A stretch of 64,000 nt of DNA from Escherichia phage ECO340P1. Shown here in pieces: positions 5,874 through 39,613 of this stretch; position 1 is the stretch's first letter, and every line of letters starts with the position of its first letter. The position numbers were made by a program, and so were the translations under genes. Below the pieces are notes generated by a model that had not been told where the DNA came from, did not search any database, and worked only from the letters and a program-made list of their open reading frames with translations. The DNA lies in sequence record OP172791; one strand, 5' to 3'.

Positions 5874-5897
5874 GATTTTTCTCTCTTTTTCAGTGAG

Positions 5898-5956: not shown

Positions 5957-5962
5957 TGCTTT

Positions 5963-6328
5963 TTATAAATCTTTTTTACGTTTTACATCGCTCGCATGAC
6001 TGTATACAGTGATCCCATTGTCACGGCAAAAACGGGAAAGATACGCGCCGCGTGAAAACTCTTTACCTTCCATATTAATAACCTTGCTAAATTCTTCCAG
6101 GGCGACGGTATCAAAATGATCACCATAGCCATATTGAAACGGAACGTTAACCACCTCGATCAGTTTACCGCCGATCTCAACGTCAACCATTAAAGAAAAA
6201 TATGTGTTACCGTAGGACTGTTGAAACCAGCGACGGGCGCTAATGTGCACCGCTTCAATGCTGGATAATTCAATTTTAGCCGTGTTAGCCAGGGTAGCAT
6301 AAGCGGAAACATTGATATTAATAGCCAT
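5963..6328 (-). CDS. hypothetical protein (121 aa)
   Basis: ORF downstream of cassette. Confidence 0.6.
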   Translation of the reverse strand: MAININVSAYATLANTAKIELSSIEAVHISARRWFQQSYGNTYFSLMVDVEIGGKLIEVVNVPFQYGYGDHFDTVALEEFSKVINMEGKEFSRGAYLSRFCRDNGITVYSHASDVKRKKDL

Positions 6329-6354
6329 GATGATAATCTCTCTTTTTGGTTAGT

Positions 6355-6406
6355 GGGAAGTATTCCCGATAAAAGTTATTATGCTTATACTATCACTCAT
6401 TGTCAA
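6355..6406 (-). promoter_or_regulatory. promoter-hairpin cassette for 5963-6328
   Basis: TTGACA 6401-6406, N17, CATAAT 6378-6383, hairpin GGGAA-GTA-TTCCC. Confidence 0.55.
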
Positions 6407-6425
6407 TAGTATAAGACTAAAACTT

Positions 6426-6605
6426 TTAACGATAATCGTTATAGGCTTTATTGACCTGGCGAATGTAACATTCGAAAGCAAGATCAATGTATTCGTATTC
6501 ACGCACATAATCACCATAGGTCACTACATACATTTTTAAAGTTTCCTCATAAGCCAGGAGGATCGAATCTAAACCTATAATCTCAGTTTTTGCAATGATA
6601 GCCAT
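6426..6605 (-). CDS. small hypothetical protein (59 aa)
   Basis: Unlisted ORF with SD AAAAGG after cassette. Confidence 0.45.
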   Translation of the reverse strand: MAIIAKTEIIGLDSILLAYEETLKMYVVTYGDYVREYEYIDLAFECYIRQVNKAYNDYR

Positions 6606-6625
6606 GATGTTAACCTTTTATTGTT

Positions 6626-6682
6626 GGCGGCACCATTGCCGCCCTACGTGATAAACTATACCAGAAGTTTAAACAGTGTCAA
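6626..6682 (-). promoter_or_regulatory. promoter-hairpin cassette for 6426-6605
   Basis: TTGACA 6677-6682, N16, TATAGT 6655-6660, hairpin 6626-6643. Confidence 0.6.
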
Positions 6683-6688
6683 CCGTTT

Positions 6689-7051
6689 TTATTCGTAAAT
6701 TTTACCGCTTTCGGCCCATACCATAACGCGGCGCATACTATCCCAAGTGTTTTGATCCAGGTTTAATCCGTGCAATTCTTCGGTACTTCCCAGACCAGGT
6801 ACCGCCTTGTTGTAAGTTGCATATAAGCGCCCTTGATACTCATACGCCAGGGTGAGATCCGTTTGAATCATCTTTTTAAGCATAGCATTAAGCATCATAT
6901 TAGCGGCATGTTGATCACGTTTTAGCGGTAACATATCAATAAGGGCGCGATAAGCTGAAACATGAATATCAACCGTTTCACGTGGTAAATTTTTCATCTC
7001 ATCGCGGAAAGATACCAGATTAAACATGATAGTATTGATTTGCTTGCTCAT
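6689..7051 (-). CDS. hypothetical protein (120 aa)
   Basis: Track ORF trimmed to ATG with SD AAAGGG after hairpin. Confidence 0.6.
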   Translation of the reverse strand: MSKQINTIMFNLVSFRDEMKNLPRETVDIHVSAYRALIDMLPLKRDQHAANMMLNAMLKKMIQTDLTLAYEYQGRLYATYNKAVPGLGSTEELHGLNLDQNTWDSMRRVMVWAESGKIYE

Positions 7052-7074
7052 TGTGTTACCCTTTTTTTGTTTTG

Positions 7075-7134
7075 GCGGGGAAGTATTCCGCCGCCCTATG
7101 TGATACATCTTATCAGATTAAAAAACGTTGTCAA
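7075..7134 (-). promoter_or_regulatory. promoter-hairpin cassette for 6689-7051
   Basis: TTGACA 7129-7134, N16, TAAGAT 7107-7112, GC inverted repeat 7075-7096. Confidence 0.6.
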
Positions 7135-7143
7135 GAATATTTT

Positions 7144-7239
7144 TTAGAAAATAATAGCCGCTACTACAACCCAAAATGGAACGGCGAAAATGAGAGCGTT
7201 AATCGTTCCAACCGTCAAGCTATTTTCTTTATTAATCAT
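7144..7239 (-). CDS. small hydrophobic peptide (31 aa)
   Basis: Unlisted ORF with SD AGAGGC after a full cassette. Confidence 0.3.
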   Translation of the reverse strand: MINKENSLTVGTINALIFAVPFWVVVAAIIF

Positions 7240-7268
7240 TGTAAGCCTCTTGCATAATTTCACTATGA

Positions 7269-7325
7269 GCGGCACCATTGCCGCCCTACGTGGTAAATAT
7301 TATGCCAGTGGCGGCGATATGTCAA
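7269..7325 (-). promoter_or_regulatory. promoter-hairpin cassette for 7144-7239
   Basis: TTGACA 7320-7325, N17, TAATAT 7297-7302, hairpin 7269-7284. Confidence 0.55.
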
Positions 7326-7879
7326 AGACTATTTTCAAAGTTTTCTAGTGCGATCCTTTTTTCTTCCTCTGTCGGCTGATAATCAGGAAAAGCATCAACA
7401 CACAACAACGGCGGGATCTCTTCGTACTCTTCCTCTTCCGTTGTCTCCTCGTCTTCCTCCTGGGCTATGGCTGCAATTTTGGCTAATTTTCTTTCGGCTT
7501 GAATCAATTTACCATCAAGTACGTTTTTTGCCATGTTGTAAGCGGTCCAGGTGATGCGCTTACTTTCCAGGGCTTGATCGAGCGCCGCTATCTTGCTGGG
7601 GTATTCATCCAGGACACGAAAAGCCGGATCAATTTTGTACAAAGGATTATCTTTCGCGCCGTCGCTCGCATCTTCCGCACTGGATAAATCAGCGTTACCA
7701 TTTGCCAGCCAGCCAGGGCGCACATAACGCGCTTTTACGTTGCCGTTACTACGTGCTAACCTGTTACCTATTTGCTCACCGCTATATCCCGTGGATTCAT
7801 CGATAAGATGATCGGGAATGATGCGCGGATCATCTGCTTCATGTTTTACCCAAGACTGGATCACATATTCGCGGCCCAT
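7322..7879 (-). CDS. hypothetical protein with acidic C-terminal region (185 aa)
   Basis: ATG 7879 with SD AAGGTGG (track start is GTG); Glu-rich stretch EEDEETTEEEEYEE. Confidence 0.6.
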   Translation of the reverse strand: MGREYVIQSWVKHEADDPRIIPDHLIDESTGYSGEQIGNRLARSNGNVKARYVRPGWLANGNADLSSAEDASDGAKDNPLYKIDPAFRVLDEYPSKIAALDQALESKRITWTAYNMAKNVLDGKLIQAERKLAKIAAIAQEEDEETTEEEEYEEIPPLLCVDAFPDYQPTEEEKRIALENFENSL

Positions 7880-7880
7880 A

Positions 7881-8138
7881 TTAACCACCTTTTTTCAACA
7901 ATTGGCATACTTTGAAAAGACTTGCTGAATCCTTGCAAGGGTAGAAAGATGTACGATAATCACGTACGCCAACCTTGCGGATCTCGATGTTTTCGCATGT
8001 TGTTTGATCAAAGATATTTATTTCATCACGCCCCCTTATATAAACATAGTGGGGATGTATTAACGCATATTTTGCTAATCTGTAAAAAGCGTTATCTTTG
8101 AACGCGATCACGTGACCTTTTAATTTGATGTAAAACAT
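7881..8138 (-). CDS. hypothetical protein (85 aa)
   Basis: ORF with SD AAGGTGG after cassette. Confidence 0.55.
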   Translation of the reverse strand: MFYIKLKGHVIAFKDNAFYRLAKYALIHPHYVYIRGRDEINIFDQTTCENIEIRKVGVRDYRTSFYPCKDSASLFKVCQLLKKGG

Positions 8139-8156
8139 TCTACCACCTTACAAATA

Positions 8157-8212
8157 GCGGGAACTATTCCCGCTTTATGTAACATATTAACAAATTATTC
8201 GTTAATGTCAAG
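8157..8212 (-). promoter_or_regulatory. promoter-hairpin cassette for 7881-8138 and 7322-7879
   Basis: TTGACA 8207-8212, N16, TAATAT 8185-8190, hairpin 8157-8175. Confidence 0.6.
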
Positions 8213-25982: not shown

Positions 25983-27809
25983 ATGAAAGATTTGTACCAA
26001 GATGTTTTTTCTTTTTTAGATCGCACTTCAGAAACATACACTAGAGAGAATGCAAACAAACCTTCCCACCTCGTTAACACACACAGGGATCTCTTGGCGG
26101 GGATTTTAAGCAAACATATGGCAATGACACAGATACTGCCAAAAAACTTGTCAGAATGGCATACAGAAGGTTTTGGACATATTCACGACTTGGATTATCT
26201 GCTCTCTCCTCTTACAAACTGTTGTCTTGTTAATTACCAAGATATGTTAGAAAATGGTTTTAAGATCGGTGCTGCACAGATAGAAAAACCAAAATCTATT
26301 GGAGTAGCTACCACAGTGCTAACTCAAATCATCCAAGCTGTAGCATCGAGCCAGTATGGTGGACAGACTTGTGCGCATATTGACGAGGGATTAAAACAAT
26401 ACGTAGAAAAAAGCTACAACAAAATCTTTAATAATCTCAGCAAAAATTATCGTGGTCCTAATACAGAGGACTTAGAGAAAAGGGCGATGGAAGTGGTGGA
26501 CAGTCTTGTTTATGACGCAATGCAAACACTTCTGTATCAAGTTAATACCTTGATGAGTGTGAATGGTCAATCACCATTCATCACTATCAGCCTCGGCTTG
26601 GACACCTCTGTTTTTGGACGAATGATCACTAAGAACTATTTAAAGGTTCATACAGGAGGTCTTGGGAAGGATCGCGTGACCCCAGTATTCCCGAAAGTCG
26701 TGTTCTTCCTGAAAGACGGGGTGAATATGAAACCGGGTGACCCGAATTACGATCTCAAGCAACTGGCAATGGAATGTTGTGCAGAAAGGATTTACCCTGA
26801 TTTCATCTCTGTTCCACTGAACATGGAAGTCACAGGATCTTCAGATGGCAAGGTTACAAGCATGGGTTGCAGAAGCTTCCTTTCTCACTATGCCACCGAA
26901 CAAGGAGAAAAATACGACGGACGATTCAACCTTGGAGTAGTTTCTATCAACTTACCTCTGATCGCTGCGGAAGCGAGAAGTAAAGGAGAATCTTTCACCG
27001 ATCTTCTTAATAAACATATGGAGATAGCCTACGATGCTCACATGCTACGTGTAAACCGTATCAGACATACCAAAGCATCTGAAAACCCTATTCTTTTCAT
27101 GGAAGGGGCTTTAGCTCGTTTAAATGCCAACGATGAAATTGGTGTTTTGTTTGAAGGTGGTTATGCTTCTATTAGTATTGGTTATGTAGGTCTTGCCGAA
27201 GCTTTGGAAATCCTTTATCCAGAAGAAAAAGATAAAAAGGAACTTGGTAAAAACATTCTGCAACATATGAAAGATGTGTGTGCTGTGTTTAAAGAACGAT
27301 CTAATTTGGCGTTTAGTCTCTATGGAACTCCAGCAGAATCTTTGTGCTATAAGTTTGCAACAGCTTTAAATGAAAAATACCCAGGTTTGGTAGAAAGAGA
27401 CTATCTTACTAACTCTTTTCATCAACCTGTGTGGTTGGTAACAAACCCTTTTGAAAAATGGGATTATGAAGCAGGTTTTGCACAGATTAGTAATGGTGGT
27501 AACATAAGTTATGTCGAAACACCAAACTTAAAGAATAACTTAGAAGCTTTGGAGACTTTAGTAGACTACGCTTATGAACATATTCACTATTTTGGTATTA
27601 ATCAGCCCGTGGATCAATGCTTTAAGTGTGGTTTTCATGGGGAATTTAAGGCAACGGCTAAAGGGTTTGAGTGTCCTGATTGTGGCAACCATGAAGAAGA
27701 AACTATTTCTGTAGTTAGACGTGTGTCAGGGTATCTTTCTGCCCCTAACTCACGCCCTTACAACAAAGGTAAAATGCAGGAAGTTTTGCAAAGGGAGAAA
27801 CATCTTTGA
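25983..27809 (+). CDS. nrdD: anaerobic ribonucleoside-triphosphate reductase (class III)
   Basis: C-terminal Zn-ribbon CFKCGF..CPDCG and glycyl-radical motif RVSGYL; adjacent radical SAM activase. Confidence 0.9.
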   Translation: MKDLYQDVFSFLDRTSETYTRENANKPSHLVNTHRDLLAGILSKHMAMTQILPKNLSEWHTEGFGHIHDLDYLLSPLTNCCLVNYQDMLENGFKIGAAQIEKPKSIGVATTVLTQIIQAVASSQYGGQTCAHIDEGLKQYVEKSYNKIFNNLSKNYRGPNTEDLEKRAMEVVDSLVYDAMQTLLYQVNTLMSVNGQSPFITISLGLDTSVFGRMITKNYLKVHTGGLGKDRVTPVFPKVVFFLKDGVNMKPGDPNYDLKQLAMECCAERIYPDFISVPLNMEVTGSSDGKVTSMGCRSFLSHYATEQGEKYDGRFNLGVVSINLPLIAAEARSKGESFTDLLNKHMEIAYDAHMLRVNRIRHTKASENPILFMEGALARLNANDEIGVLFEGGYASISIGYVGLAEALEILYPEEKDKKELGKNILQHMKDVCAVFKERSNLAFSLYGTPAESLCYKFATALNEKYPGLVERDYLTNSFHQPVWLVTNPFEKWDYEAGFAQISNGGNISYVETPNLKNNLEALETLVDYAYEHIHYFGINQPVDQCFKCGFHGEFKATAKGFECPDCGNHEEETISVVRRVSGYLSAPNSRPYNKGKMQEVLQREKHL

Positions 27810-28289: not shown

Positions 28290-28481
28290 ATGGTTACATA
28301 TTTTGCTGTAGGAGATAGAGTAGGGACGGCAGGAGAACTTTTGAAGAACAGTGATCGGGACGTTAAGGACATTCTTGCAACCCTTGTGGATATTTTACAA
28401 AGAAAAGAGTTGCTTTCTGATCGAGATGTTGCTAAATTACTTGATATCGGAGGAGATGAACTTCAAAGACTTCCATTTTAA
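28290..28481 (+). CDS. hypothetical protein (63 aa)
   Basis: ATG 28290 with SD TAGGAGG. Confidence 0.45.
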   Translation: MVTYFAVGDRVGTAGELLKNSDRDVKDILATLVDILQRKELLSDRDVAKLLDIGGDELQRLPF

Positions 28482-28496
28482 GTGAGGAGATAAGTA

Positions 28497-29102
28497 ATGC
28501 AACATAGTGTAGTAGTCAACATGCCGAATAGTGGGGATAAATCTTTTGGTGTCCCTGCTAAAAAAGTGTGGAAAGCCCATTTTCATCTTACTTTATCTAA
28601 CGTTAGTTCTGAAGAGTTGATGAAAGCAGCTAAGATTATTGGTGCCAAATGCACAACAATTGATTTACATCGGGATACAAAGTCTCAACGTGATCGTATG
28701 TTAACAAAGTATCAAAGCGATCTCGACACTACTTTAATGTTGCAGTGTGTAGAAAAACTTGAGAATGCAGGTTTCAATGTTGTTCGTTACAAACTGGAAC
28801 GAATGTTTAAACATGTTGCCTGTGTTCTTTTCATGGATCTAAGTAAAGAAAATTACGGAGAAGTTCACATTAAGACTTCAGCAAGTGATCCCGAAGTAGA
28901 AACAAACTTCTTCCGTATTTCTTCTAATGCTGAAGAAGTTGATTACCGATTTTATAATGCTCGCTTATATTCCGCAGAAGATAAGTTGCGTTTCAATGAA
29001 GCGTATGATATGCTCTTGAACAGTGGGATACAGATAAAAGGCTACCACATAGAACAAGTGGTAGTGGACAGTAATCTTAACTTAGACGCATGGTGGGCTT
29101 AA
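28497..29102 (+). CDS. hypothetical protein (201 aa)
   Basis: ORF with SD GAGGAGA; first gene of Ter-like module. Confidence 0.55.
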   Translation: MQHSVVVNMPNSGDKSFGVPAKKVWKAHFHLTLSNVSSEELMKAAKIIGAKCTTIDLHRDTKSQRDRMLTKYQSDLDTTLMLQCVEKLENAGFNVVRYKLERMFKHVACVLFMDLSKENYGEVHIKTSASDPEVETNFFRISSNAEEVDYRFYNARLYSAEDKLRFNEAYDMLLNSGIQIKGYHIEQVVVDSNLNLDAWWA

Positions 29103-29103
29103 T

Positions 29104-29760
29104 ATGACTATTAAACATATCTCTTTTGATGTATGGAACACACTGATCACAGCAAACTCCAATTACGCAGACATGCGAGCCTGGACTATCGCAAAATATG
29201 GAGATATTACGGAAGTGGAAGCAAGAGCAGCTTATAAAAAGATCAAAAAGGAACTGGATAATGCAGCACTTCAAGGCAAAGCCGAGTGTGCAGCATACGC
29301 CTGGGAAAGACTTGGTTCTGAACTTGGGATAACACCTTGGAAGTCTGCAAAGCTTCGTTTCGAGTGTGAACAGTGGTTCCTTAAGTTTCCACCACACGTA
29401 GCCGTGGATCTGCCGATGTACTTGTTGTATCTTTCGGGGCGTTATGATTTGAGTATTAAGAGTAATACCAACTTCATATCAGGGGATATCCTGCGTCGTG
29501 CTTGTAAGTTTGATAGTTGGAATTGTTTTGAGTTCACCCATTTCTCGGATGAAGCTTTACTTTGTAAACCAGATCCGCGATTCTTTGCTCGCACGCTCAC
29601 GTATTCTCCGATCCCTCTGTTAGGGCACGAAGTATTGCACGTAGGAGATAGTGAAGAATATGATGGGAAATGTGTTGACTTAGGATTTAACTTCTGTCAT
29701 ATTAAGAACCCTAACGACTTACTAGAGAAACTTAAAAGAGGAGAAATTGTAAATGCGTAA
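29104..29760 (+). CDS. HAD-superfamily hydrolase-like protein
   Basis: N-terminal ISFDVWNTL (HAD motif I variant) and C-terminal LHVGDSEEYDGKCVDLG. Confidence 0.6.
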   Translation: MTIKHISFDVWNTLITANSNYADMRAWTIAKYGDITEVEARAAYKKIKKELDNAALQGKAECAAYAWERLGSELGITPWKSAKLRFECEQWFLKFPPHVAVDLPMYLLYLSGRYDLSIKSNTNFISGDILRRACKFDSWNCFEFTHFSDEALLCKPDPRFFARTLTYSPIPLLGHEVLHVGDSEEYDGKCVDLGFNFCHIKNPNDLLEKLKRGEIVNA

Positions 29761-30580
29761 TCAAACTCAAATTTTTGCAAATAAATTTGATGACCTGGAA
29801 GCTGCTACTTTTGATATCCAAGATTATTCAAAATTGAAATTTGGTAGTAACCAAGCTGCGCGTCGTATGGGTAAAGAATTGGCACTTCAGTTTTTTGCTC
29901 AAGTGGCAATGAAACATATTGGGGAACAATTTGTTATCATTCCTTCTCCTTACAACCATGTGCATAATGCTGCAACAATGATGACAGATCATTTTATTAA
30001 TTACTTTAATATGTTGCAATCACAATATGATCAAGGTCGTTCAGCAGAACTGGATATTATTCATCGTAAAGTTAGCTATATCAACGATTATGGTTTCTTG
30101 GATAAAGCTAGTCGTAAGAAACTTATTGATGGGGATACATTCTACTGCAACAAAGAATTCTGGGGTGATAAGAAGCTTGTGTTTATTGATGATGTAAATA
30201 TCACTGGAACTCATGAAGACAAACTGATTGAGATCCTTGATGAAAATCAAGTTAAAAATGATGTTTACTTCCTGTATTTTGCAAAATATGAAGGTAATCA
30301 AGCAGATACCGAAGCTAAACTGAATTTTAACTACATTAATACACCGGAAGCGTTTGTTAAAATGATTAATGAAGAACGTGATGCACAGTGTCTTGTTCGT
30401 CCTATTAAGTATCTTATGGGCCAAAATCATGAAGACTTCAAAATCATTCTTAGCCAATTGCCACATTACTATGTAGAGCAACTTTTCTTTGGATGCTTGG
30501 GAGAAGGTTACAACCGAATTTCAAAGTATGCTGAAAACTTTGAATTCTTGGATCGTTACACAAAACAACACATTCTGTAA
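29753..30580 (+). CDS. phosphoribosyltransferase (PRTase type I fold) protein
   Basis: PRPP-binding signature KLVFIDDVNITGTHE. Confidence 0.65.
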   Translation: MRNQTQIFANKFDDLEAATFDIQDYSKLKFGSNQAARRMGKELALQFFAQVAMKHIGEQFVIIPSPYNHVHNAATMMTDHFINYFNMLQSQYDQGRSAELDIIHRKVSYINDYGFLDKASRKKLIDGDTFYCNKEFWGDKKLVFIDDVNITGTHEDKLIEILDENQVKNDVYFLYFAKYEGNQADTEAKLNFNYINTPEAFVKMINEERDAQCLVRPIKYLMGQNHEDFKIILSQLPHYYVEQLFFGCLGEGYNRISKYAENFEFLDRYTKQHIL

Positions 30581-30593
30581 TAAGGAGCTAAAA

Positions 30594-31067
30594 ATGCTTA
30601 AAATGAAAACAGGTAATCTTATTGATGCCGCTAAAGCAGGTGAAGTAACTGTTATTGCTCATTGTTGCAACTGTATGTGTAATATGGGGGCAGGTATTGC
30701 CCCACAAATCAAACAAGCATTTCCTTACGCATATGCAGCAGACTTAGACACAATGGCTGGTGATCAAAGTAAACTAGGTTGTTTTAGTTTAGGGGTGCCA
30801 GACGAACAATCAGACCCTTTGGTATATAATCTATACGGGCAATACCGTTACGGATACAATGCTAAAGGTCGTCAGTTGGACTATGATGCACTTTACGATG
30901 CACTAATAGCTATGGCTAACGATTTGCTTCTCCGTGACCAAAAATGTAAGATCGGCTTACCTATGATTGGCGCTGGATATGCTGGAGGTAATTGGGCTAT
31001 CATCCAAGTGATGATTGAAGAAACTTTAGTAAAAACAGGTCACGATGTGACTATTTATAAACTTTAA
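30594..31067 (+). CDS. macro domain (ADP-ribose binding/processing) protein
   Basis: ATG 30594 with SD TAAGGAG; motifs VIAHCCNCMCNMGAGIA and LPMIGAGYAGGNW. Confidence 0.6.
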   Translation: MLKMKTGNLIDAAKAGEVTVIAHCCNCMCNMGAGIAPQIKQAFPYAYAADLDTMAGDQSKLGCFSLGVPDEQSDPLVYNLYGQYRYGYNAKGRQLDYDALYDALIAMANDLLLRDQKCKIGLPMIGAGYAGGNWAIIQVMIEETLVKTGHDVTIYKL

Positions 31068-31079
31068 GAGGAGATTAGT

Positions 31080-31301
31080 ATGGGTGTTTTTGCAGGTATT
31101 GTTGCAGTGGTAAGCTTTTTTGTTATTGCTTTTATGCTTAGTTTGATTCCAGCTTGGTTACTGTTGCTGGCTTACAACTATGTTGCTGAAGTTATGGGTC
31201 ATGCAGATATCACTGTCCCAGTAACCTTCTGGACCGTGGTTTGTGTTTCGTTTATTCTGGCTGTATTACGAGGAATCTTTTCCTCTCATTCAACAAAATA
31301 A
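31080..31301 (+). CDS. small membrane protein (73 aa)
   Basis: SD AAGAGGAG; two predicted transmembrane segments. Confidence 0.5.
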   Translation: MGVFAGIVAVVSFFVIAFMLSLIPAWLLLLAYNYVAEVMGHADITVPVTFWTVVCVSFILAVLRGIFSSHSTK

Positions 31302-31304
31302 GTG

Positions 31305-31363
31305 TTGACATAGTTCTTAAAAAGAGTAAGATATATCACATGAAGCGGGGAATAGTTCCCCGC
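31305..31363 (+). promoter_or_regulatory. promoter-hairpin cassette (plus-strand copy) for TerC gene
   Basis: TTGACA 31305-31310, N16, TAAGAT 31327-31332, hairpin GCGGGGAA-TAG-TTCCCCGC 31345-31363, then SD GAGAGGAGAAAAG. Confidence 0.6.
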
Positions 31364-31380
31364 AAAGAGAGGAGAAAAGA

Positions 31381-32355
31381 ATGCAACTTGGTTTCCCAAT
31401 TATTGATGTAGTTGTTTTAGTTGGTATTTTAGCATTGTCTATTGGTATTGATTTCTTTGGTCACAAAGAAAATAAAGAAATTTCATTCAAATCCGCAGTT
31501 GGTTGGTCGATCTTTTGGATTGGTGTATCATTAGCTTATTATGGTTTTGTATACTTCCAACATGGTGCCGATTTTGCTAACTTGTTTTTAAGTGGATATG
31601 TGTTGGAAAAATCTTTGTCGGTAGATAACTTGGTAGTATTTGTAGCAGTATTCGCAAGTTTTGGTATTAAAAGCACACACTTGCAGCACAAAATTCTACT
31701 TTGGGGTATTGCAGGTGCGATTGTCTTCCGAGGTGTGTTTGTAGCAGTAGGCACTTACTTGTTAAGTTTGGGCTGGTATGTTAATATCTTCTTCGGTGCG
31801 GTCATCCTTTTCTGTGCAGCTAAAATGGTATTTGCTGGAGATAATGACGCAGAAGTTGATTACTCTAAACACTGGGCTACCCGTATTGTTCGTAAACTGT
31901 TCCCTGTATCTAATAAAATGGATGGGGAGAAGTTCTTCACAATCGAAAATGGTGTTCGTGTAGCAACTCCAGCTTTGGTTTGCGTATTCGTGATGGAAAT
32001 GGTTGATGTAATCTTTGCAGTAGATTCTGTTCCGGCAGTGATCGCAGTAACACAAGAACCTCTGCTTGTATTCTCTTCGATGTTATGTGCAATCTTAGGT
32101 CTACGTGCTCTGTTCTTTGTTCTTAGTGTTGCACTGAAGTATCTGGTTCACTTGGAGAAAGCAGTTATTGTGGTTCTGGTGTTTGTAGGTGTTAAACTAA
32201 TGTATCACCCGTTTGCAGAAACGTTACATGAAAAAATGAGCTTCCTGCCAGCGCACATTGATCCAACTATTAGTATGTATATTGTCCTGGGCACATTAGC
32301 TCTTGGTGTTATTGCAAGCTTTATCTTCCCTGAAAAAGAAGAAGCTACTGTTTAA
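31381..32355 (+). CDS. TerC-family integral membrane protein
   Basis: Multiple TM segments; motifs VLEKSLSVDNLVVF and EMVDVIFAVDSVPAVIAV; own promoter-hairpin cassette; terminator downstream. Confidence 0.8.
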   Translation: MQLGFPIIDVVVLVGILALSIGIDFFGHKENKEISFKSAVGWSIFWIGVSLAYYGFVYFQHGADFANLFLSGYVLEKSLSVDNLVVFVAVFASFGIKSTHLQHKILLWGIAGAIVFRGVFVAVGTYLLSLGWYVNIFFGAVILFCAAKMVFAGDNDAEVDYSKHWATRIVRKLFPVSNKMDGEKFFTIENGVRVATPALVCVFVMEMVDVIFAVDSVPAVIAVTQEPLLVFSSMLCAILGLRALFFVLSVALKYLVHLEKAVIVVLVFVGVKLMYHPFAETLHEKMSFLPAHIDPTISMYIVLGTLALGVIASFIFPEKEEATV

Positions 32356-32361
32356 TAAATG

Positions 32362-32386
32362 AGCCTCCTTCGGGAGGCTATTTTAT
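32362..32386 (+). terminator. rho-independent terminator after TerC gene
   Basis: AGCCTCC-TTCG-GGAGGCT followed by ATTTTAT. Confidence 0.7.
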
Positions 32387-32397
32387 AGGAGAGATTT

Positions 32398-32748
32398 ATG
32401 AGTAATTTTGATGAAATTCAAGAACTTGTTTGGGATTTATCTGGTGATGTGGATTACATTTCAGATTATCTTTCAAAAGTTTACCCTGGGGTAAGCGTTA
32501 TGATTGTGACCAAAGATCCAATTAATTTGCCTCCTAATGTTGTAGCTTGTTGTGGAAGTGGTTCAGGAGAAGTAGAGCCTGTATCTCGTTGGGAATTAAC
32601 TAAAGCTGTTTCAAAACGAAACGGTGAAGTTTTGAATATTGATATTGAGCAAATATGGACTTCTCCAGCAGCCAAATGGAATGATCCAAATGGTTGGGAT
32701 TTGTTCTTCTGGGATAATGAGACTGATGATGAGGTGTTTTTAAAATGA
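32398..32748 (+). CDS. hypothetical protein (116 aa)
   Basis: ORF with SD AGGAGAG. Confidence 0.55.
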   Translation: MSNFDEIQELVWDLSGDVDYISDYLSKVYPGVSVMIVTKDPINLPPNVVACCGSGSGEVEPVSRWELTKAVSKRNGEVLNIDIEQIWTSPAAKWNDPNGWDLFFWDNETDDEVFLK

Positions 32749-32990
32749 AATACTTGTTGGTTGTGTTTGAAAATATCTGTTTTGCAATAGGGTTGTTTGT
32801 TGTAATTTTTGTATTGACAAGCGTAATCAACGGCAGTAAAGTGAGTTTATACCGAGATGGAGAGCAACTTTATTGCTTCTCTGGAGATTTCAAACACAGA
32901 TGTATTAATAGCCAAAACGAGGAAAGCAAATATGAAAAAACTAGCCCTGATTTTAATTGGTTGTATCTTTTTAACAGCTTGCGAGGATGA
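32745..32990 (+). CDS. possible small membrane protein (overlaps next gene by 59 nt)
   Basis: ORF with SD GAGGTG and hydrophobic segment; overlap makes it doubtful. Confidence 0.3.
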   Translation: MKYLLVVFENICFAIGLFVVIFVLTSVINGSKVSLYRDGEQLYCFSGDFKHRCINSQNEESKYEKTSPDFNWLYLFNSLRG

Positions 32991-33369
32991 AACAAATCCT
33001 GCACAATACCAACAACCTCCTCAACAATACGCTCAACAAGGATCTGACGGAGATACAACTATTATCAACAATGGTGGCGGTTCTAGTAGTAGCGGTGTTG
33101 GTGAGTTTGCTACAGGTATGTTGTTAGGGCATATGATGAGTGGCGGTAGTAATCGTAGCAGTGGGGATTATAACGATAACAGAACGATTATTAATAAGCA
33201 TTATAATACACCTAAACCGAAAACTAATTTTTATGGTAAGCCTAAACAAGAGATAAAAACTTATGAAAAGCCGAGACAAACTTTTAAAACAAATAGTAGC
33301 TATACAACTCGTAAATCTTACAATAGCCCTTTAAGTAAAAAGAGTTCATCTCGTAGCAAGCGACGTTAA
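32932..33369 (+). CDS. lipoprotein with Gly/Ser-rich region
   Basis: ATG 32932 with SD GAGGAAAG; signal peptide plus lipobox LTAC; glycine-zipper-like GEFATGMLLGHMMSGG. Confidence 0.6.
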   Translation: MKKLALILIGCIFLTACEDETNPAQYQQPPQQYAQQGSDGDTTIINNGGGSSSSGVGEFATGMLLGHMMSGGSNRSSGDYNDNRTIINKHYNTPKPKTNFYGKPKQEIKTYEKPRQTFKTNSSYTTRKSYNSPLSKKSSSRSKRR

Positions 33370-33383
33370 TAAGGAGAAAAACA

Positions 33384-33977
33384 ATGACAATTTCTATTCG
33401 TACTTCCATTACAGGTGTTAAAAGTTTGCCTAATGCTTTGCAAATCACACGTGCTTTGAGGGATACGTTCTCTGCTGTGGATGAGCATAAGATGCTCGAT
33501 AATCTCTCAAATTGGCCCTATTTTCATTATTTTAAAAATGAAGACGACGAGTTTATAGACGCTGTTTCTTACGGTTATGATTTCGGTAAGGAGGTTTCTC
33601 CTGAAGAATTTGTAGCTATGGTGTTCCCAAACGGTTTGCCTACTCGCAGTAAACGTAAAAAAGGACCAAAAAACAAGAAACGTGCTACTAATAAAGCTAC
33701 CATTTTCTTTACTGATGGCACACAATATACGATTAAAGATTTTGAAGAGGTATCTTATACAGCAGGTGGGAGTCTTTCTTTCTACACCATCAAAAAACAA
33801 AACTATACGTTCAGCCATGTTTCTAACATGATTGAAATGTTAGTAGAAGATATTGAAAGCGTGGCTGTGTTAGGTATGCATAAAAGCTTTTTAATTACAA
33901 ATATTTCAGATTTCAGTGCAAGTTTATCTGGCCCTGATTTTGAAGCCACGACCACGCATTTCGCTTTTAAGGTGTAA
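33384..33977 (+). CDS. hypothetical protein (197 aa)
   Basis: ORF with SD TAAGGAGAAAA; basic stretch RSKRKKGPKNKKR. Confidence 0.55.
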   Translation: MTISIRTSITGVKSLPNALQITRALRDTFSAVDEHKMLDNLSNWPYFHYFKNEDDEFIDAVSYGYDFGKEVSPEEFVAMVFPNGLPTRSKRKKGPKNKKRATNKATIFFTDGTQYTIKDFEEVSYTAGGSLSFYTIKKQNYTFSHVSNMIEMLVEDIESVAVLGMHKSFLITNISDFSASLSGPDFEATTTHFAFKV

Positions 33978-33980
33978 GTT

Positions 33981-34571
33981 ATGCATACCGAGAGAGACTT
34001 GCAACTCTTGTGGTGGGAAGTGATGCAGGAAATAAAAGAAGATTTTCCTGTTTACTACAACATGTTACGTGAAGCAGGATATAAAGCTTGTGTTAGAAAC
34101 AAAGTGAATAACTCTTTCGGTTGGTGCAACTACCGAGATAAAATTGTTGTTGTAAATTGGCACTTGCATAAGAACTCCACAAGAGATATGATCGTGGATA
34201 CAATGAAGCACGAAATTGCTCATGCTATTGATGGTTGTATGGGTAAGTTTAGTAGGCACGGTGCTCATTGGCAAAAACTGGCAGCAGAATTAGGGGCTAA
34301 TCCTAAAGCCACTTCCAAAGAGCCGTTGAACCACGAATATAAATATGTTCTTGTTCTGGTAGATAGGTTTGCGACAAGATGTGTTAGAGGTTATAATCGT
34401 AAACCTAATCGCATGTACCCAGGTAAGCAACCTAATATGTGGTTGAAATCAGATAAAGAAGGGACCGAAGGAAAATTATGGTTGTATAAATGGGACGATT
34501 GGGTTAAAGTAGCTAAAGAGTACGGTGTTTCACCATATATAAGAGATGCAGAAGAGGAGAATGAAGAATGA
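33981..34571 (+). CDS. SprT-like zinc metallopeptidase domain protein
   Basis: HExxH motif in context MKHEIAHAIDG. Confidence 0.6.
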   Translation: MHTERDLQLLWWEVMQEIKEDFPVYYNMLREAGYKACVRNKVNNSFGWCNYRDKIVVVNWHLHKNSTRDMIVDTMKHEIAHAIDGCMGKFSRHGAHWQKLAAELGANPKATSKEPLNHEYKYVLVLVDRFATRCVRGYNRKPNRMYPGKQPNMWLKSDKEGTEGKLWLYKWDDWVKVAKEYGVSPYIRDAEEENEE

Positions 34572-35680
34572 CAAGTCCATTTTTAAAAGCAGCTACTGGT
34601 GGTCAGAAGAAGCCTGAAATGAGCGTATTTGCTGCAACAACAGATGCAAGTAAATCTGTATTCGCTCCAAGCGTGTTAGATGCCAGTCCTGTTTATGCAC
34701 CAGCGGCACCGCAAGAAGTTCCAGTTTTGCCTTCTATGACCCGACAAGAGATTGAAGAGATTGGGGCAGAGGCAGGAACAACCTTGCGTTCCTTGAATGC
34801 CGAGGTGTTAAAACATCAACGTAGTAATCAAGGCGATCAGATGAGTGAACGACTCACAGCTTTGATTAAACAGGCAAAACAACTTGATCCAAACTCTATT
34901 AAACAAAGCAAGGGTATTACTAAACTCATTAAAAAAGTTATGGGTATGAAAGAAGACCTGTTCGGGGAGTTTGATAATGTTAATAACCGTATTGAAGAGT
35001 TGGTAAAGAACCTTCAAATGGATATTCGCAAAGAAGAAGATTCCTTGGTATATCTTGAAAAGCTGCATCAAGCTATTGGACAATATGCTGCAAGTTTGAA
35101 CCGAGATATGCAGCTTCTAACAGCAACCTATGAAAAAGAAGAACAAGCTTTGGCTGCTCTTCCAGAAGATGCAGTAGAACAGCGACAAGTGATCCGAGAT
35201 ACTTTGGATCTTCTGGAGATTCGTATTGCAGATTTAAAAGCATTGCGCCTACTGTGTGTCCAAATGGGACCGCGTGTACAAGGTATGCAAAAAGTTTCTG
35301 CAAGCTTAATGCGATCTGCGCGTAACATAGTAAATAATGTTATTCCTGCTTACTCTGCTAACTTCTCAATGTATATCGAGAGCTTACGTCAAATGAAAGC
35401 AGCAGAGACGCAGAATAACGTTCTTGATGAATTTAACCTGGCAATTAAACTGGGTAGCGATCTTGCCACACAGAATCAGATCGAAGCAGCAGCACTGGCT
35501 AACCGTCAAGTGTTGGATATTGAAACTCTGCGTCACGATCAGGAAAACTTGGTTAAGATGCTGGAAGAAACTAACCGCATCAATACGGAAGCCCGTGCTG
35601 CTCGTGTTGATTATATTAATGAAGTTCAATCTCTGGAAGACGGGATGGTAGCTGCTGTGAAACGAGGGCTTGGTAAATGA
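34568..35680 (+). CDS. coiled-coil protein, TelA/KlaA-like (tentative)
   Basis: Long helical Leu/Glu/Gln-rich protein; family assignment is from memory of TelA pattern and genomic context. Confidence 0.55.
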   Translation: MTSPFLKAATGGQKKPEMSVFAATTDASKSVFAPSVLDASPVYAPAAPQEVPVLPSMTRQEIEEIGAEAGTTLRSLNAEVLKHQRSNQGDQMSERLTALIKQAKQLDPNSIKQSKGITKLIKKVMGMKEDLFGEFDNVNNRIEELVKNLQMDIRKEEDSLVYLEKLHQAIGQYAASLNRDMQLLTATYEKEEQALAALPEDAVEQRQVIRDTLDLLEIRIADLKALRLLCVQMGPRVQGMQKVSASLMRSARNIVNNVIPAYSANFSMYIESLRQMKAAETQNNVLDEFNLAIKLGSDLATQNQIEAAALANRQVLDIETLRHDQENLVKMLEETNRINTEARAARVDYINEVQSLEDGMVAAVKRGLGK

Positions 35681-35874
35681 GAATCCGTATCTATATAATT
35701 GATGAAGACATTGGTGTCCGTTATGATGACGAAAAACGATTCGCACCGATGGGAGGCATATATCCCCCAAGTGTTCTAGCAGTTTGTCGTGATTGTTATA
35801 TTTATGAAGGTTGTCGTAACTTCCGTAAATTCGAACTCCTTGCAGATATTGACTTCAATGAGGAGGAGGAGTAA
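35677..35874 (+). CDS. hypothetical protein (65 aa)
   Basis: ORF with ATGA overlap. Confidence 0.5.
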   Translation: MRIRIYIIDEDIGVRYDDEKRFAPMGGIYPPSVLAVCRDCYIYEGCRNFRKFELLADIDFNEEEE

Positions 35875-36047
35875 TGAAAATATTACGAGTGAATATTGAA
35901 ACTGCTTGGTGTGGATGCAATGAGGTTGTTGATATTGAGATTGAAGAGGATATGTCTCAAGAAGATATCGAAGATCTTGCAAAAGAAACATTCCAGGATT
36001 ATTGTAACTACGGGTTCCATATTTTAGAGGAGGGAGAAGATGTTTAA
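35874..36047 (+). CDS. small acidic protein (57 aa)
   Basis: Unlisted ORF with SD GAGGAGGAGGAG. Confidence 0.4.
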   Translation: MKILRVNIETAWCGCNEVVDIEIEEDMSQEDIEDLAKETFQDYCNYGFHILEEGEDV

Positions 36048-36243
36048 CTACGAGAACGACCCTAACATTATCCAGTTAACTCGACAAGAACTGATCACAA
36101 TCATGGAAGATGCTTTTATCGATGGGTGGAAGACTCAAAACTATGATTGGAGTGGCCCAGAAGACTTTCTGCGTCTTCATAAAGAGTATGACGAGTCCAG
36201 TGAGACGACTATTGCCATTGACGATCTTAAGGCAGGTGTATAA
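36040..36243 (+). CDS. hypothetical protein (67 aa)
   Basis: ORF with SD AGAGGAGGGAG. Confidence 0.5.
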   Translation: MFNYENDPNIIQLTRQELITIMEDAFIDGWKTQNYDWSGPEDFLRLHKEYDESSETTIAIDDLKAGV

Positions 36244-36812
36244 TGGGTTGCTTTAGTTTTCTGTGTAAGGAGTCGGGCAAAGCTGCCCTCTCCACCTCTT
36301 TCGATGGATCTCCTTGTTATCTCTTTCTACTGAAAGATGGAAAGGTTATCGAAGAGATGCACGGCAATTATGATAGTTATGGGCGTGTCTTCTCCAGTAA
36401 GCAGGATGCTCACGGGAACAGAGAAAGCTTTAAATGGACTATACCTTGGAGCGACGTTTGTGATCTTATGTTCTCTGTAAACCGTGGAGACGGTATTGCT
36501 ATGGTTTTAGCAGAACACTTTACAGGAGAAGCCCCCACAGAACGATCCGAGGATGATCCTAATCAAGGTTGGGGAGACGGAGACGGAGAAGAAGAAGAGG
36601 ATTATTTCTACAGCACCGAAAATAATATTTTCAAACGTGTTGACAACCCTTATCATAAAGTGCATAATGTCCTCACTGAAACAGAAGACGACAAAATGGA
36701 AATTGAAGAAGATGATCCTCTTGTAACACTTCCTATAAGTGAGTTACAAAAGATCACTAAGGAAGCTTACGATTTGGGCTTCAAAATTGGTAGAGGAGGT
36801 ATGCGTGTTTAG
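36243..36812 (+). CDS. acidic hypothetical protein (189 aa)
   Basis: ORF; acidic stretch GDGDGEEEEDY. Confidence 0.55.
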   Translation: MGCFSFLCKESGKAALSTSFDGSPCYLFLLKDGKVIEEMHGNYDSYGRVFSSKQDAHGNRESFKWTIPWSDVCDLMFSVNRGDGIAMVLAEHFTGEAPTERSEDDPNQGWGDGDGEEEEDYFYSTENNIFKRVDNPYHKVHNVLTETEDDKMEIEEDDPLVTLPISELQKITKEAYDLGFKIGRGGMRV

Positions 36813-37083
36813 ATTCAATATTCAAGAAGAAAAAAGTCAAGATTTACCTATTGCTTTCGAAGATCTTGACGTAGGGGCAACATTCATGTATTATGATGCC
36901 TATGAAGACGCAGGGTTGGATACCTACCGTAACTTGGTGTTCATTAAAAATTCCACAAACAGTGCGATTTGTATTAATGGATCACTAGCACAACGAGGCT
37001 ATACTCATTGCATCCCACCAGATACAAATATGGTGGAAGTAGATTTAGAAGTTACCAATATTACACTTAAGAAGGAGAAATAA
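36805..37083 (+). CDS. small protein, paralog of 38105-38374 (GTG start)
   Basis: GTG five nt after SD GAGGAGG; shared motif DLDVG.TF.Y..A..E.GLD. Confidence 0.45.
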   Translation: MFRFNIQEEKSQDLPIAFEDLDVGATFMYYDAYEDAGLDTYRNLVFIKNSTNSAICINGSLAQRGYTHCIPPDTNMVEVDLEVTNITLKKEK

Positions 37084-37084
37084 T

Positions 37085-37879
37085 ATGTCCGAGAAAATCA
37101 GCCTGAAAAAACGTCAAGAAAACCTTGCTTTCTCTCTGAAAAAGAATAAGAACCTGAATGAAGGTAAGATTGTTCTTCGTGTAGCATGTGCTCTAGATAT
37201 TTCTGGTAGTATGCATGGTCTATATTCTAGTGGGGTAGTGAGTGATTTTGTAGGTAAACTGCTTCCTTTTGGTATGCTGTTCGACGATAATCAACAAATT
37301 GATATGTGGGCCTTCAATACGAGTTCCCAAGAGCTTACTCCAGCAACAGCAGACGTTTACGATGACTATGTTGGTAAATGTATGCGTAATGTTCGTATCG
37401 GAGGTGGAACAAATTACGCCCCTGTAATGGCAGATATCTACGATGAGTATTTTGGCACTGTTACCAAATATATTACCACTAAACAAGTGGTACAAGAGGA
37501 GGCTCCAAAGAAAGGCTTCTTTAATCGTCTGCTTGGTAAAACTGAAACAGTGTCTGTAGAGCGTGAAAAAGTTGTAGCTGTATCTGAACCAGGTGCTGAC
37601 GTTACCCCTGGTGTTGTATTCTTCCAGACGGATGGTGAGAATGGTGATCCTAGTGCTGTTCGTCGTCTTATTGAAGAGAATAAGAATAAACCTATTTATT
37701 GGTTCATGGTTGGCGTTGGTAATGAGAAGTTTGGGTTCCTGAAAGAACTGGCAAATGCTTATGATAATGTTGGTTTTATTGGCATTAAAGATTTAGACTT
37801 GACAGATTCAGAGCTTTATGACAAACTCTTATCTGAGGAGTTCGGAGAGTGGGTTGTTAAAGTAGGTGCTAAAAAATGA
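37085..37879 (+). CDS. von Willebrand factor type A (vWA) domain protein, TerY-like
   Basis: MIDAS motif LDISGSMHG, GGTNYAP, FFQTDGENGD; N-terminal KISLKK repeat like TerD N-terminus. Confidence 0.7.
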   Translation: MSEKISLKKRQENLAFSLKKNKNLNEGKIVLRVACALDISGSMHGLYSSGVVSDFVGKLLPFGMLFDDNQQIDMWAFNTSSQELTPATADVYDDYVGKCMRNVRIGGGTNYAPVMADIYDEYFGTVTKYITTKQVVQEEAPKKGFFNRLLGKTETVSVEREKVVAVSEPGADVTPGVVFFQTDGENGDPSAVRRLIEENKNKPIYWFMVGVGNEKFGFLKELANAYDNVGFIGIKDLDLTDSELYDKLLSEEFGEWVVKVGAKK

Positions 37880-38124
37880 TCGACGAGCTTGCCTCTCAAG
37901 TCATAGAAAATTATTGGCGCGAGAGAGAAGCTTTCATTATGCGCAGTCTCAAAGAGTATTTCATTGGGACTGTGCGAATGGAAGATATTGTAAGTAGAGT
38001 GGAGATTCATGTATGGCCCGATTATGAAGAATGGGTTGACAAAGAAAATGAAAATGCTATAATTCTTCGTATATACAAACCGGAGATAACATTAGGAGGA
38101 AGAAGTGTTAAACTTCGAAATTGA
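37876..38124 (+). CDS. hypothetical protein (82 aa)
   Basis: ORF with ATGA overlap. Confidence 0.45.
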   Translation: MIDELASQVIENYWREREAFIMRSLKEYFIGTVRMEDIVSRVEIHVWPDYEEWVDKENENAIILRIYKPEITLGGRSVKLRN

Positions 38125-38374
38125 TGAGCAAAAAGTAAATAAACGATGCCTTACCATTAAAGATTTGGATGTAGGAGATACTTTCGTCTATGAAAATGCA
38201 TTTGACGAAAATGGTTTAGACCTTAGTGAAATCATTGTTTATTTAAAAGTAGATGATGGGGAAAATGATTATTCTGCTGTAGAACTAAACCATCATGCAC
38301 AATTAGTATCAATCCAAAACACATCTAAGCTTTTGGAAGTAGAATTGACTGTAACTGGTATTACACTTAAATAA
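38105..38374 (+). CDS. small protein, paralog of 36805-37083 (GTG start)
   Basis: GTG after SD GGAGGAAG; paralogous sequence. Confidence 0.45.
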   Translation: MLNFEIDEQKVNKRCLTIKDLDVGDTFVYENAFDENGLDLSEIIVYLKVDDGENDYSAVELNHHAQLVSIQNTSKLLEVELTVTGITLK

Positions 38375-38389
38375 TAGAGGAGACAAAAG

Positions 38390-38992
38390 ATGACTGATAA
38401 AATTTCCCTGAAAAAAGGCTCTAGCGAAAAAATTTCCCTGAAGAAAGTTGCTCCGGCTCTGAAAGAACTGCGCCTGGAATTCTCTTGGAAATCTGATTCT
38501 AAACTGGATCTGGATGTAAGTGCACTGGTTTGTCGTCACAATGCCGCTGGTAATCCTGAAATGCTGTCTGCACGTCATCTGGTTTGCTATGCTAACAAGT
38601 TTGATCCTGAACGTTCTACCTTCGCTGGTGACGATGTTCGTGATGGAACTGGCAGCATGGAGCAGATTGATATTACTCTGGCTAAAATCTCTCCTGATGC
38701 ACAAGAGATTGCCTTTGTTCTGACCATTGATGATGATACAGGTCTGAAACGTTTTGGTCATGCTTCTGAAGGTATGCTTAAAATCTTCGACTCCGAGCGC
38801 AATGTGGAAATTCTGGATTTTGACTTCCTGGCTCCTGAAGTAGCTGGCAACACAATCTGCCACGTGGCTTCCTTGGTTCGTGAAGATGGGGAATGGAAGC
38901 TGAAAGCATATGGTGTAGGTAAAGCTGGTCTGGATATTTGTGATGTGGTGATGGCCTTCGGTGGTAAAAAAGAATGGTATGAATGTCCATAA
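38390..38992 (+). CDS. TerD-domain protein
   Basis: N-terminal KISLKKGSSEKISLKK, DLDVSALV, acidic-loop GDDVRDGTGSMEQIDI, C-terminal WKLKAYGVG match TerD family pattern. Confidence 0.8.
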   Translation: MTDKISLKKGSSEKISLKKVAPALKELRLEFSWKSDSKLDLDVSALVCRHNAAGNPEMLSARHLVCYANKFDPERSTFAGDDVRDGTGSMEQIDITLAKISPDAQEIAFVLTIDDDTGLKRFGHASEGMLKIFDSERNVEILDFDFLAPEVAGNTICHVASLVREDGEWKLKAYGVGKAGLDICDVVMAFGGKKEWYECP

Positions 38993-39091: not shown

Positions 39092-39613
39092 TTGCTGATA
39101 AAAAACTTTGTAACAGTTGCGTTACTATCCTTAACTGCTTTTACATTTACACCTGTTGTGGCGAAAGCCGAAGCTGCAAACGTAAAAACCGCTAAAGTAG
39201 TTCACAAATGTACAAAGCAATATAATGATAAAATTCTATTAGCTTGTGCAATTTACGCAGAAGGTCGCGGTCTGGGTAAAAAAGGAATGAATGCCGTTGG
39301 GAATGTGGTAATCAACAGAAGAAATGATACCTACTTCCCTAACACAGTCAGAGGAGTCTTGTTCCAGAAAGGACAATTCTCATATGCGAAAACTTTTAAC
39401 GTAACAGAGAAAGATAAGTGGCAGGAAGCAAAAGCAATAGCGGAACGTTTACTTTATTTAGAGAAACATTTTCCTGAATTGCGGTCTGTTTTAGATGTTA
39501 CTAAAGGTGCTCTATACTTCAAGAAACGGAATATAAGGACAAACTGGGAACGTGATATGCGTCTTGTTTATCGAGATAAAGTGCATGGTTTCTATCTACC
39601 AAAGGGGAGTTAA
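39092..39613 (+). CDS. secreted cell-wall hydrolase, SleB-like (candidate endolysin)
   Basis: TTG start after SD AAGGAGG; signal peptide; motifs LLACAIYAEGRG and NTVRGVLFQKGQFSY. Confidence 0.65.
   Translation: MLIKNFVTVALLSLTAFTFTPVVAKAEAANVKTAKVVHKCTKQYNDKILLACAIYAEGRGLGKKGMNAVGNVVINRRNDTYFPNTVRGVLFQKGQFSYAKTFNVTEKDKWQEAKAIAERLLYLEKHFPELRSVLDVTKGALYFKKRNIRTNWERDMRLVYRDKVHGFYLPKGS

Follow-up and report, generated by a model that had tools for sequence, protein, structure and literature searches.

The region between positions 28,290 and 38,992 of the stretch of Escherichia phage ECO340P1 DNA analysed here (sequence record OP172791, 64,000 nucleotides; the whole stretch is called the window) encodes proteins of the families that make up bacterial tellurite-resistance (ter) loci, and it raises the question of what use a virulent phage may have for them. 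An earlier reading made from the sequence alone had proposed that HAD hydrolase, phosphoribosyltransferase (PRTase), macro, TerC, TelA, vWA and TerD genes form one Ter-like module in this region. The seven corresponding open reading frames (ORFs) were verified on the plus strand and profile searches bore out the seven domain calls at the same coordinates, so that the presence of a phage-borne Ter-type gene set together with a PRTase/HAD pair is confirmed at the level of domains. As judged from these profiles, the region carries a phage-adapted, reduced Ter-type system (window 29.1-39.0 kb) with a predicted nucleoside-forming enzyme pair. The novelty implied by the sequence-only reading was not sustained. 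The module has already been described in the Phapecoctavirus lineage and in other phages, clusters including PRTase and HAD having been published for phi92-like, phiPsa, phiKp34 and jumbo phages, and its presence here is not itself a discovery.

Gene content of the region

The region matches dozens of genomes of Phapecoctavirus (phAPEC8-like; Stephanstirmvirinae) at 94-98% identity over its whole length, with ESCO37 (98.2%) at the top. Between about 16 kb and 52 kb of the window, every gene is on the plus strand. In a well-annotated relative the order along the block is small early ORFs, helicase, ribonucleotide reductase, NrdD/NrdG, the region of interest, endolysin, glycosyltransferases, primase-helicase, DNA polymerase and single-stranded DNA-binding protein. 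These neighbours place the region within the early/middle block for replication and nucleotide metabolism of a virulent myovirus which, with 150 kb, is not a jumbo phage.

The gene set was compared with the Ter-dependent stress-response system (TerZABCDEF/TelA) in the sense of Anantharaman, Iyer and Aravind (2012), and the ORFs of at least 100 aa at 28.3-39.6 kb were scanned with Pfam. TerD, TerC, TelA and a vWA protein of the TerF type were all found (Table 1). The metal ion-dependent adhesion site (MIDAS) of the latter, D-x-S-G-S, is invariant across phage homologues. This protein had been called a TerY-like vWA protein; the vWA domain stands, the TerY likeness does not, as the family is that of the TerF C-terminal domain. 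In addition, it gave no PADLOC match, and the other two members of the anti-phage TerY-P triad, a Ser/Thr kinase and a PP2C phosphatase, have no gene in the region.

The HAD protein scored 21 bits in Pfam, under the gathering score, and is supported by PHROG 14393 ('hydrolase', 3e-117), by a profile match to PDB 2om6 (1.5e-18) and by NCBIfam. HAD motifs I-IV were detected, with the nucleophile Asp9 and motifs II-IV kept. The phosphatase signature of the superfamily (DxDx(T/V) with a general acid at Asp+2, plus motifs II-IV) is departed from at Asp+2: motif I reads D-x-W-x-T, the Trp is invariant across seven lineages, and 2om6, the nearest solved relative, likewise has FDVWNTL. The PRTase_3 protein shows the fold of type I phosphoribosyltransferases and their phosphoribosyl pyrophosphate (PRPP)-binding loop, here LVFIDDVNITGTHE, in which D146, D147, T151 and G152 are invariant in 25 homologues. 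The HAD and PRTase_3 genes are translationally coupled.

On sequence grounds TerC is probably a divalent-cation transporter; both signature motifs of the family, E-x-S-L-S-x-D-N and D-x-x-F-A-x-D-S, were seen. The curated model TIGR03718 assigns it to the same subfamily as E. coli Alx. The leader of E. coli alx is a Mn2+/pH riboswitch, whereas the window TerC is preceded by an early promoter of phage type and by a short hairpin, and Rfam gave no match to a yybP-ykoY (Mn2+) riboswitch upstream of it, whether the gathering threshold or E<=1 was applied. Nucleotide similarity of the gene to any E. coli chromosome was not detectable. The early-type promoter-hairpin cassette that the sequence-only reading had seen before TerC was rightly described. 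It takes the form TTGACA-N16-19-TAnnnT with, 6-14 nt further on, a short hairpin rich in GC (GCGGGAA-TAG-TTCCCGC or GCGGCA-ATGG-TGCCGC), and 11 further copies lie on the minus strand at 469-8211, in the small-ORF left region; the central block contains no further copy besides that of TerC. These copies indicate that TerC is probably an early gene. Compensatory changes maintain the TerC hairpin in phi92 and in two metagenomic relatives (L013 and L030), and the conservation of the cassette hairpin suggests a protein-binding or RNA-stabilising element. The GenBank record of ASO2A annotates the same TerC promoter and terminator, and one GenBank record labels the hairpin itself as a terminator, though it has no downstream U-tract. 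The proposal of one transcription unit reduces to co-orientation, given that TerC has its own promoter and terminator and that near-consensus sigma-70 sites precede the two small paralogues located before vWA and TerD. These paralogues share 33% identity (E 3e-13), and phi92 holds only the copy upstream of vWA.

Table 1. Features predicted in the region and at its downstream edge (window positions)
Feature	Position	Strand	Evidence and remarks
201-aa protein	28497-29102	+	Lineage-specific
HAD-superfamily hydrolase (REG-2/HDHD3-like, subfamily IA)	29104-29760	+	Profiles, motifs; 8-nt overlap with PRTase start
PRTase_3 (ComF-like type I phosphoribosyltransferase) with C-terminal helical domain	29753-30580	+	PF15610 2e-41
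Macro domain protein, TARG1/DarG/SCO6735-like clade	30594-31067	+	PF01661 21.8 bits (gathering score 22)
Small protein, two predicted transmembrane segments	31080-31301	+	phrog_16065; 60% identical to phi92 homologue
TerC promoter	31305-31332	+	Sigma-70-like, TTGACA-16-TAAGAT
TerC 5'-untranslated region hairpin	31345-31363	+	GCGGGGAA-TAG-TTCCCCGC
TerC/Alx-family membrane protein	31381-32355	+	PF03741 1e-38; TIGR03718 319 bits (cutoff 246)
Intrinsic terminator 3' of TerC	32362-32379	+	Stem AGCCTCC-TTCG-GGAGGCT, then T-tract
Predicted lipoprotein	32932-33369	+	Signal MKKLALILIGCIFLTAC; 36% identity in phi92; signal peptide annotated in phi92 gp180
SprT-like metalloprotease	33981-34571	+	PF10263 4e-9; end overlaps TelA start; Phapecoctavirus only
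TelA-family helical protein	34568-35680	+	PF05816 3e-33; 78% identical to phi92 gp178
Widespread phage-family protein, not Ter-linked	36243-36812	+	853 clusters of homologues, all lacking Pfam domains
Small protein, paralogue A	36739-37083	+	Immediately 5' of vWA; sigma-70 site 36640-36668, 11/12
vWA protein, TerF-C-terminal type	37085-37879	+	PF10138 vWA-TerF-like 1.6e-37; MIDAS DISGS intact
Small protein, paralogue B	38105-38374	+	Immediately 5' of TerD; sigma-70 site 38036-38063, 12/12, extended TG
Single TerD-domain protein	38390-38992	+	PF02342 3e-28; PDB 2kxt 1.5e-15
SleB-type (Hydrolase_2) endolysin	39092-39613		Signal-like N-terminus MLIKNFVTVALLSLTAFTFTPVVAKAEA; 100 nt downstream of TerD

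The ter-like cluster of phi92 and of phAPEC8-like phages has the same order (HAD, PRTase, macro, small transmembrane protein, TerC, lipoprotein, TelA, vWA, TerD, endolysin), and the proteins of the set are 49-95% identical in amino acids between the window and phi92, a phage of a different genus. The window contains in addition the ORFs 28497-29102 and 32398-32748 and the SprT-like gene, which have no counterpart in phi92, and the second small paralogue. The GenBank record of SKA64 and similar ones label TerC, TelA, vWA-TerF-like, TerD, PRTase, HAD and macro individually, and phi92 and vKMB37 are stated to 'carry alx-like ter cluster genes' (PMC11162368). Ter-type clusters were reported for phi92 in 2012 and for phiKp34 in 2021. 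Like the window phage, the phiPsa374-like Pseudomonas phages and Klebsiella phage phiKp34 are virulent and have TerC/TerD/TerF/TelA clusters; a PRTase_3-HAD pair was not found by tblastn in these phages, the organisms with matches including no Pseudomonas phiPsa phage. Iyer, Anantharaman, Krishnan, Burroughs and Aravind (2021; PMC7824862) described Ter systems with PRTase, HAD, TerD, TerC, TerF-vWA and TelA from jumbo 'and certain other related smaller' phages, and proposed a role in competition with superinfecting phages, that is, superinfection exclusion. The system studied here differs from those of jumbo phages in the size of its carrier, and from that description in that, by the counts across 22 phage loci, HAD strictly precedes PRTase_3 and the pair can be separated from the Ter genes.

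The families TerC, TerD, TelA and TerF-type vWA are also common to the window and the bacterial terZABCDEF/telA loci (IncHI2 R478, E. coli O157, Klebsiella plasmids). The resemblance to bacterial ter loci claimed by the sequence-only reading holds for these families and fails for close relatives of the PRTase, since no PRTase_3 homologue was found on enterobacterial plasmids by tblastn. Plasmid ter has five TerD paralogues versus one in the window, and neither TerB nor multiple TerD paralogues (TerZ/A/D/E/F) were found among the scanned ORFs. The TerY, kinase, phosphatase, ATP-grasp and C-C lyase genes are likewise missing from the region. The window TerC belongs to the Alx subfamily and not to plasmid TerC, with a 168-nt, 69% match to one plasmid terC.

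Linkage of the HAD-PRTase_3 pair with Ter genes

The association of Ter genes with the HAD-PRTase_3 pair is recurrent and non-random, yet the pair is a separable cassette. Loci with PRTase_3 were drawn from GenBank phages, IMG/VR, metagenome assemblies, plasmids and GTDB genomes by pattern-seeded scans and were scored with hidden Markov models built for this analysis, which gave at least 22 phage loci outside Stephanstirmvirinae. HAD was directly upstream of PRTase_3, often overlapping it, in all 46 loci having the upstream side. TerD, vWA, TelA or TerC were found within 10 kb of the pair, in shuffled orders, in nine of the 22 phage loci, and four of those nine (L007, L008, L024 and L036) are compact TerC-TelA-like-TerD-x-vWA-HAD-PRTase operons. 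In four loci the vWA gene immediately abuts HAD. The 383-402-aa TelA-like protein of the compact operons, which holds the position equivalent to that of TelA, was assigned by hhalign (E 1.5e-4 over 269 colinear columns; control probability 0.1-0.2%), and that of L036 gave a weak Pfam TelA match. In jumbo phages of Caulobacter and Brevundimonas, a distance of about 28-30 kb separates the pair from TerD and TelA. No Ter genes were detectable near the pair in ten of the 22 loci. In the bacteria, close PRTase_3 relatives were found in two groups only: the Rhizobiaceae, on plasmids and chromosomes, where the pair stands alone in all loci, and two Bacteroidota metagenome-assembled genomes (MAGs), where HAD-PRTase_3 is accompanied by two or three TerD genes and in one case also by TerC. 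The gene-set conservation in related phages that the sequence-only reading had called for was thus observed in the synteny with phi92, and the linkage extends to the nine other phage loci and the two Bacteroidota loci. The re-association of these families in shuffled orders and in unrelated phages points to a functional guild and not to a chance neighbourhood.

In three of the 22 loci a DUF2828/DUF7788 protein adjoins the pair in an RNA-repair context. They belong to XaC1 and two T4-like contigs (L004 10941-12527, L034 10967-12562 and L035 7152-8555), and the protein, which has a MIDAS-like DTSAS motif, is surrounded by Rnl1/Rnl2, CCA-adding enzyme, PTH2 and 2H-SAK genes. The neighbour that accompanies the pair most constantly may be a vWA-type protein. 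Two other loci carry genes of nicotinamide adenine dinucleotide (NAD) salvage beside the pair, namely an NMNAT-Nudix gene in RHph_TM2_3B and PnuC with AAA_28 in L008. One 13-kb contig in a 'Proteobacteria bacterium' MAG (L037, JAEZZU010000022.1) is 99% identical to the window phage, which marks it as a binning contaminant. The host labels of several records named as Campylobacter, Acinetobacter or Pseudomonas phages look doubtful too, as these are 90-95% identical to E. coli Phapecoctavirus.

TerC has moved by itself within this setting. Its ORF is mosaic: at window 31440-32340 the nucleotide identity is 82-99% to phi92 and 52-80% to the congeneric EF1-1, while the flanks reverse this, EF1-1 being 93-100% identical to the window. 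The TerC allele is of the phi92 type, unlike that of most Phapecoctavirus records, and occurs at >=99% in 11 phage records only, as against about 60 records, Phapecoctavirus among those listed, with an allele of about 73% identity. Third-codon-position identity to phi92 is 76% for TerC versus 54-65% for its neighbours. This pattern indicates that the TerC cassette was swapped alone between phage genera by recombination.

Other genes of the region

The macro protein had been counted as a component of the Ter module. It adjoins the HAD-PRTase pair only in Stephanstirmvirinae and its clade suggests an independent role in de-ADP-ribosylation, which speaks against that claim. Its similarity to ADP-ribosyl hydrolases was found with PDB profiles (5e3b 3.5e-12; TARG1 (OARD1) 3e-6; DarG macro 5m31 1e-5) and with the PADLOC DarG model (4e-10), with further support from PHROG and NCBIfam. 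Four proteins had also been put forward as possible further components, and none could be retained as such. Two of them, 28497-29102 and 32398-32748, are those missing from phi92; 33384-33977 is a narrow lineage-specific family, with 13 relatives in 1.8 billion representative proteins; and 36243-36812 belongs to a widespread phage family typically located in replication modules beside DnaB, primase and methylase genes, with no Ter genes around. The match to the latter family covers the N-terminal ~140 aa at 50-65% identity, including sequences from marine metagenomes. The protein 28497-29102 is probably not part of the module. It has invariant HxHxT and HxK motifs, and PADLOC profiles label it AbiEi (3.6e-13), yet no Pfam AbiEi family matches it. 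Its identification as a 2H-phosphoesterase failed a structural test. The predicted fold has its only matches among proteins of uncharacterised function from large phages (ME3, phiM12, LAh_8) and from giant eukaryotic viruses (Klosneuvirus, Bodo saltans virus).

The predicted lipoprotein (32932-33369), with lipobox LTAC, is Q/G/S-rich and has a basic tail; together with the small transmembrane proteins 31080-31301 and 32745-32990 it flanks TerC. All three proteins are conserved in phi92 and could act in the envelope or in superinfection exclusion. In L023, L004 and L034 the distance between the pair and an endolysin gene is 1.4-4 kb. Finally, nrdD is one intact ORF of 608 aa in the window (25983-27809), and in phi92 (L003 6218-8296) it is annotated as a split gene with a spliced variant.

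Possible functions of the module

The interpretation that we favour, to which we would give about an even chance of being correct, is that of an early-expressed, envelope-associated Ter complex with a small-nucleoside arm, which would protect or seal an infected cell when competing phages or pore-formers attack it. Host RNA polymerase would read TerC from its early-type promoter soon after infection, when the other genes of the module would be transcribed from sigma-70-like promoters. TerC, TelA, vWA and TerD would then assemble at the inner membrane into a complex dependent on divalent cations. PRTase_3 would couple a base to PRPP, HAD would dephosphorylate the product, and the resulting nucleoside-like molecule would be a ligand or signal of the complex. 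The outcome would be that of plasmid ter operons, for which phage inhibition and resistance to pore-forming colicins are reported (PMC12054061): the resident phage would shut out competitors that superinfect the cell, and the membrane would stay energised up to the lysis that the phage itself brings about with its SleB-type endolysin. The signal-like N-terminus of this endolysin would, speculatively, make membrane integrity especially relevant.

Several observations weigh against this interpretation. Two Asp are lost from the acidic GDGDDE stretch of TerD, which in the window subfamily is reduced to G-S-M-E (GDDVRDGTGSMEQ), while other phage TerDs retain G-x-DDE; in the Klebsiella TerD structure 2kxt the acidic Ca2+ motif reportedly is GDN(R/L)TG(E/A)GDGDDE. 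The enzymatic arm is represented by the coupled PRTase_3 and HAD, with the ATP-grasp and C-C lyase genes of bacterial Ter biosynthetic clusters absent from the region, as is TerB among the scanned ORFs. With Trp in place of the general acid, ordinary nucleotidase chemistry of HAD is not to be assumed, and some proteins with a ComF-like PRTase fold may have an activity other than base-PRPP transfer. The existence of the pair without Ter genes, in ten of the phage loci and throughout the Rhizobiaceae, means that its product need not act on Ter proteins, and the own promoter and terminator of TerC, together with its solo exchange, speak against a tight co-adaptation with TerD, TelA and vWA. Nor was a functional test of any phage Ter gene found in the literature.

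The same facts can be turned into a reading in which there is no single system but a run of independent accessory genes, such as gather in large phages within the early/middle block. On this view the pair would form a cassette of nucleotide or nucleoside metabolism that stands alone, TerC an independent exporter of Mn2+ or other cations, the macro protein an independent de-ADP-ribosylase acting, for example, against DarT-type defence, and TelA, vWA and TerD a small or loose membrane unit. We consider this possible but rather unlikely. The solitary pairs and the separate, singly exchanged TerC transcription unit agree with it, as do the T4-like contigs and XaC1, where RNA-repair genes and DUF2828/DUF7788 replace the Ter genes, the many smaller phages that hold TerC or TelA singly, and the distance of about 6.5 kb, with many unrelated ORFs between, from PRTase to vWA in the window. 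However, it does not account well for nine independent loci that rejoin the pair with TerD, vWA, TelA or TerC in varied orders, for the four in which vWA immediately abuts HAD, or for the two Bacteroidota loci with the same linkage. Metal homeostasis, with an Alx-type TerC that exports or redistributes Mn2+, Zn2+ or Ca2+ and with TerD and vWA as cation buffers, would benefit metalloenzymes of the phage or provide for the metalation of exported proteins, the secreted endolysin for example, and seems to us quite unlikely. TerC scores above the cutoff of the Alx metal-homeostasis subfamily, TerD has a Ca2+-binding fold (closest solved relative, 2kxt) and an endolysin with a signal peptide adjoins the module. 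In Bacillus, the metalation of exoenzymes is dependent on TerC. Moreover, terC of K. pneumoniae aids resistance to Zn(II) and Mn(II), its deletion lowering resistance to both metals and to phage (PMC12054061). Metal homeostasis nevertheless leaves TelA and the HAD-PRTase pair without a role, the acidic Ca2+ motif of TerD is degenerate, and the Mn2+ riboswitch of bacterial alx is absent upstream of TerC.

Counter-defence could take two forms, which even jointly are improbable: the phage proteins may act as decoys or dominant-negative subunits against host Ter systems, or the PRTase, HAD and macro proteins may degrade immune signals derived from nucleotides, or products derived from NAD, or put others in their place. 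Host ter operons do inhibit phages, the macro domain resembles those of TARG1 and DarG, two loci have NAD-salvage genes next to the pair, and a degenerate TerD metal motif is what a possible poison subunit might have. Against this, laboratory hosts without a ter operon, such as K-12, propagate these phages, according to the host fields of the records, the Ter, HAD and PRTase proteins gave no matches to PADLOC defence families, and the NAD-gene association is limited to those two of the 22 loci. A literal reading, tellurite or toxic-anion resistance of the infected cell, is very improbable: the family names are all that favours it, the host of a virulent phage does not outlive one cycle, tellurite is environmentally rare, and authors of phage papers also consider tellurite resistance unlikely. 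TerC plus TerD are the minimal tellurite-resistance unit in E. coli according to a report cited in PMC12054061.

A more specific version of the envelope-complex interpretation, which we regard as unlikely, takes the pair as a portable phage 'signal generator' whose nucleoside-like product would be read by a MIDAS vWA protein, gating the TerC/TelA/TerD complex in Ter-carrying phages. The reader would be the TerF-type vWA in Ter contexts and the DUF2828/DUF7788 type in T4-like phages, and the complex would block superinfection or delay premature lysis by the secreted endolysin under membrane attack. If this were true, Ter function could for the first time be studied in a minimal and tractable system, that of the compact six-gene phage operons. 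Ter systems are common in pathogens and have been linked to phage inhibition, colicin resistance and virulence. The stripped-down Ter set of virulent phages, sometimes a six-gene operon, offers a minimal and genetically tractable version that is testable in E. coli, and identification of the HAD-PRTase_3 product would settle the nature of the long-predicted 'nucleoside-like metabolite'.

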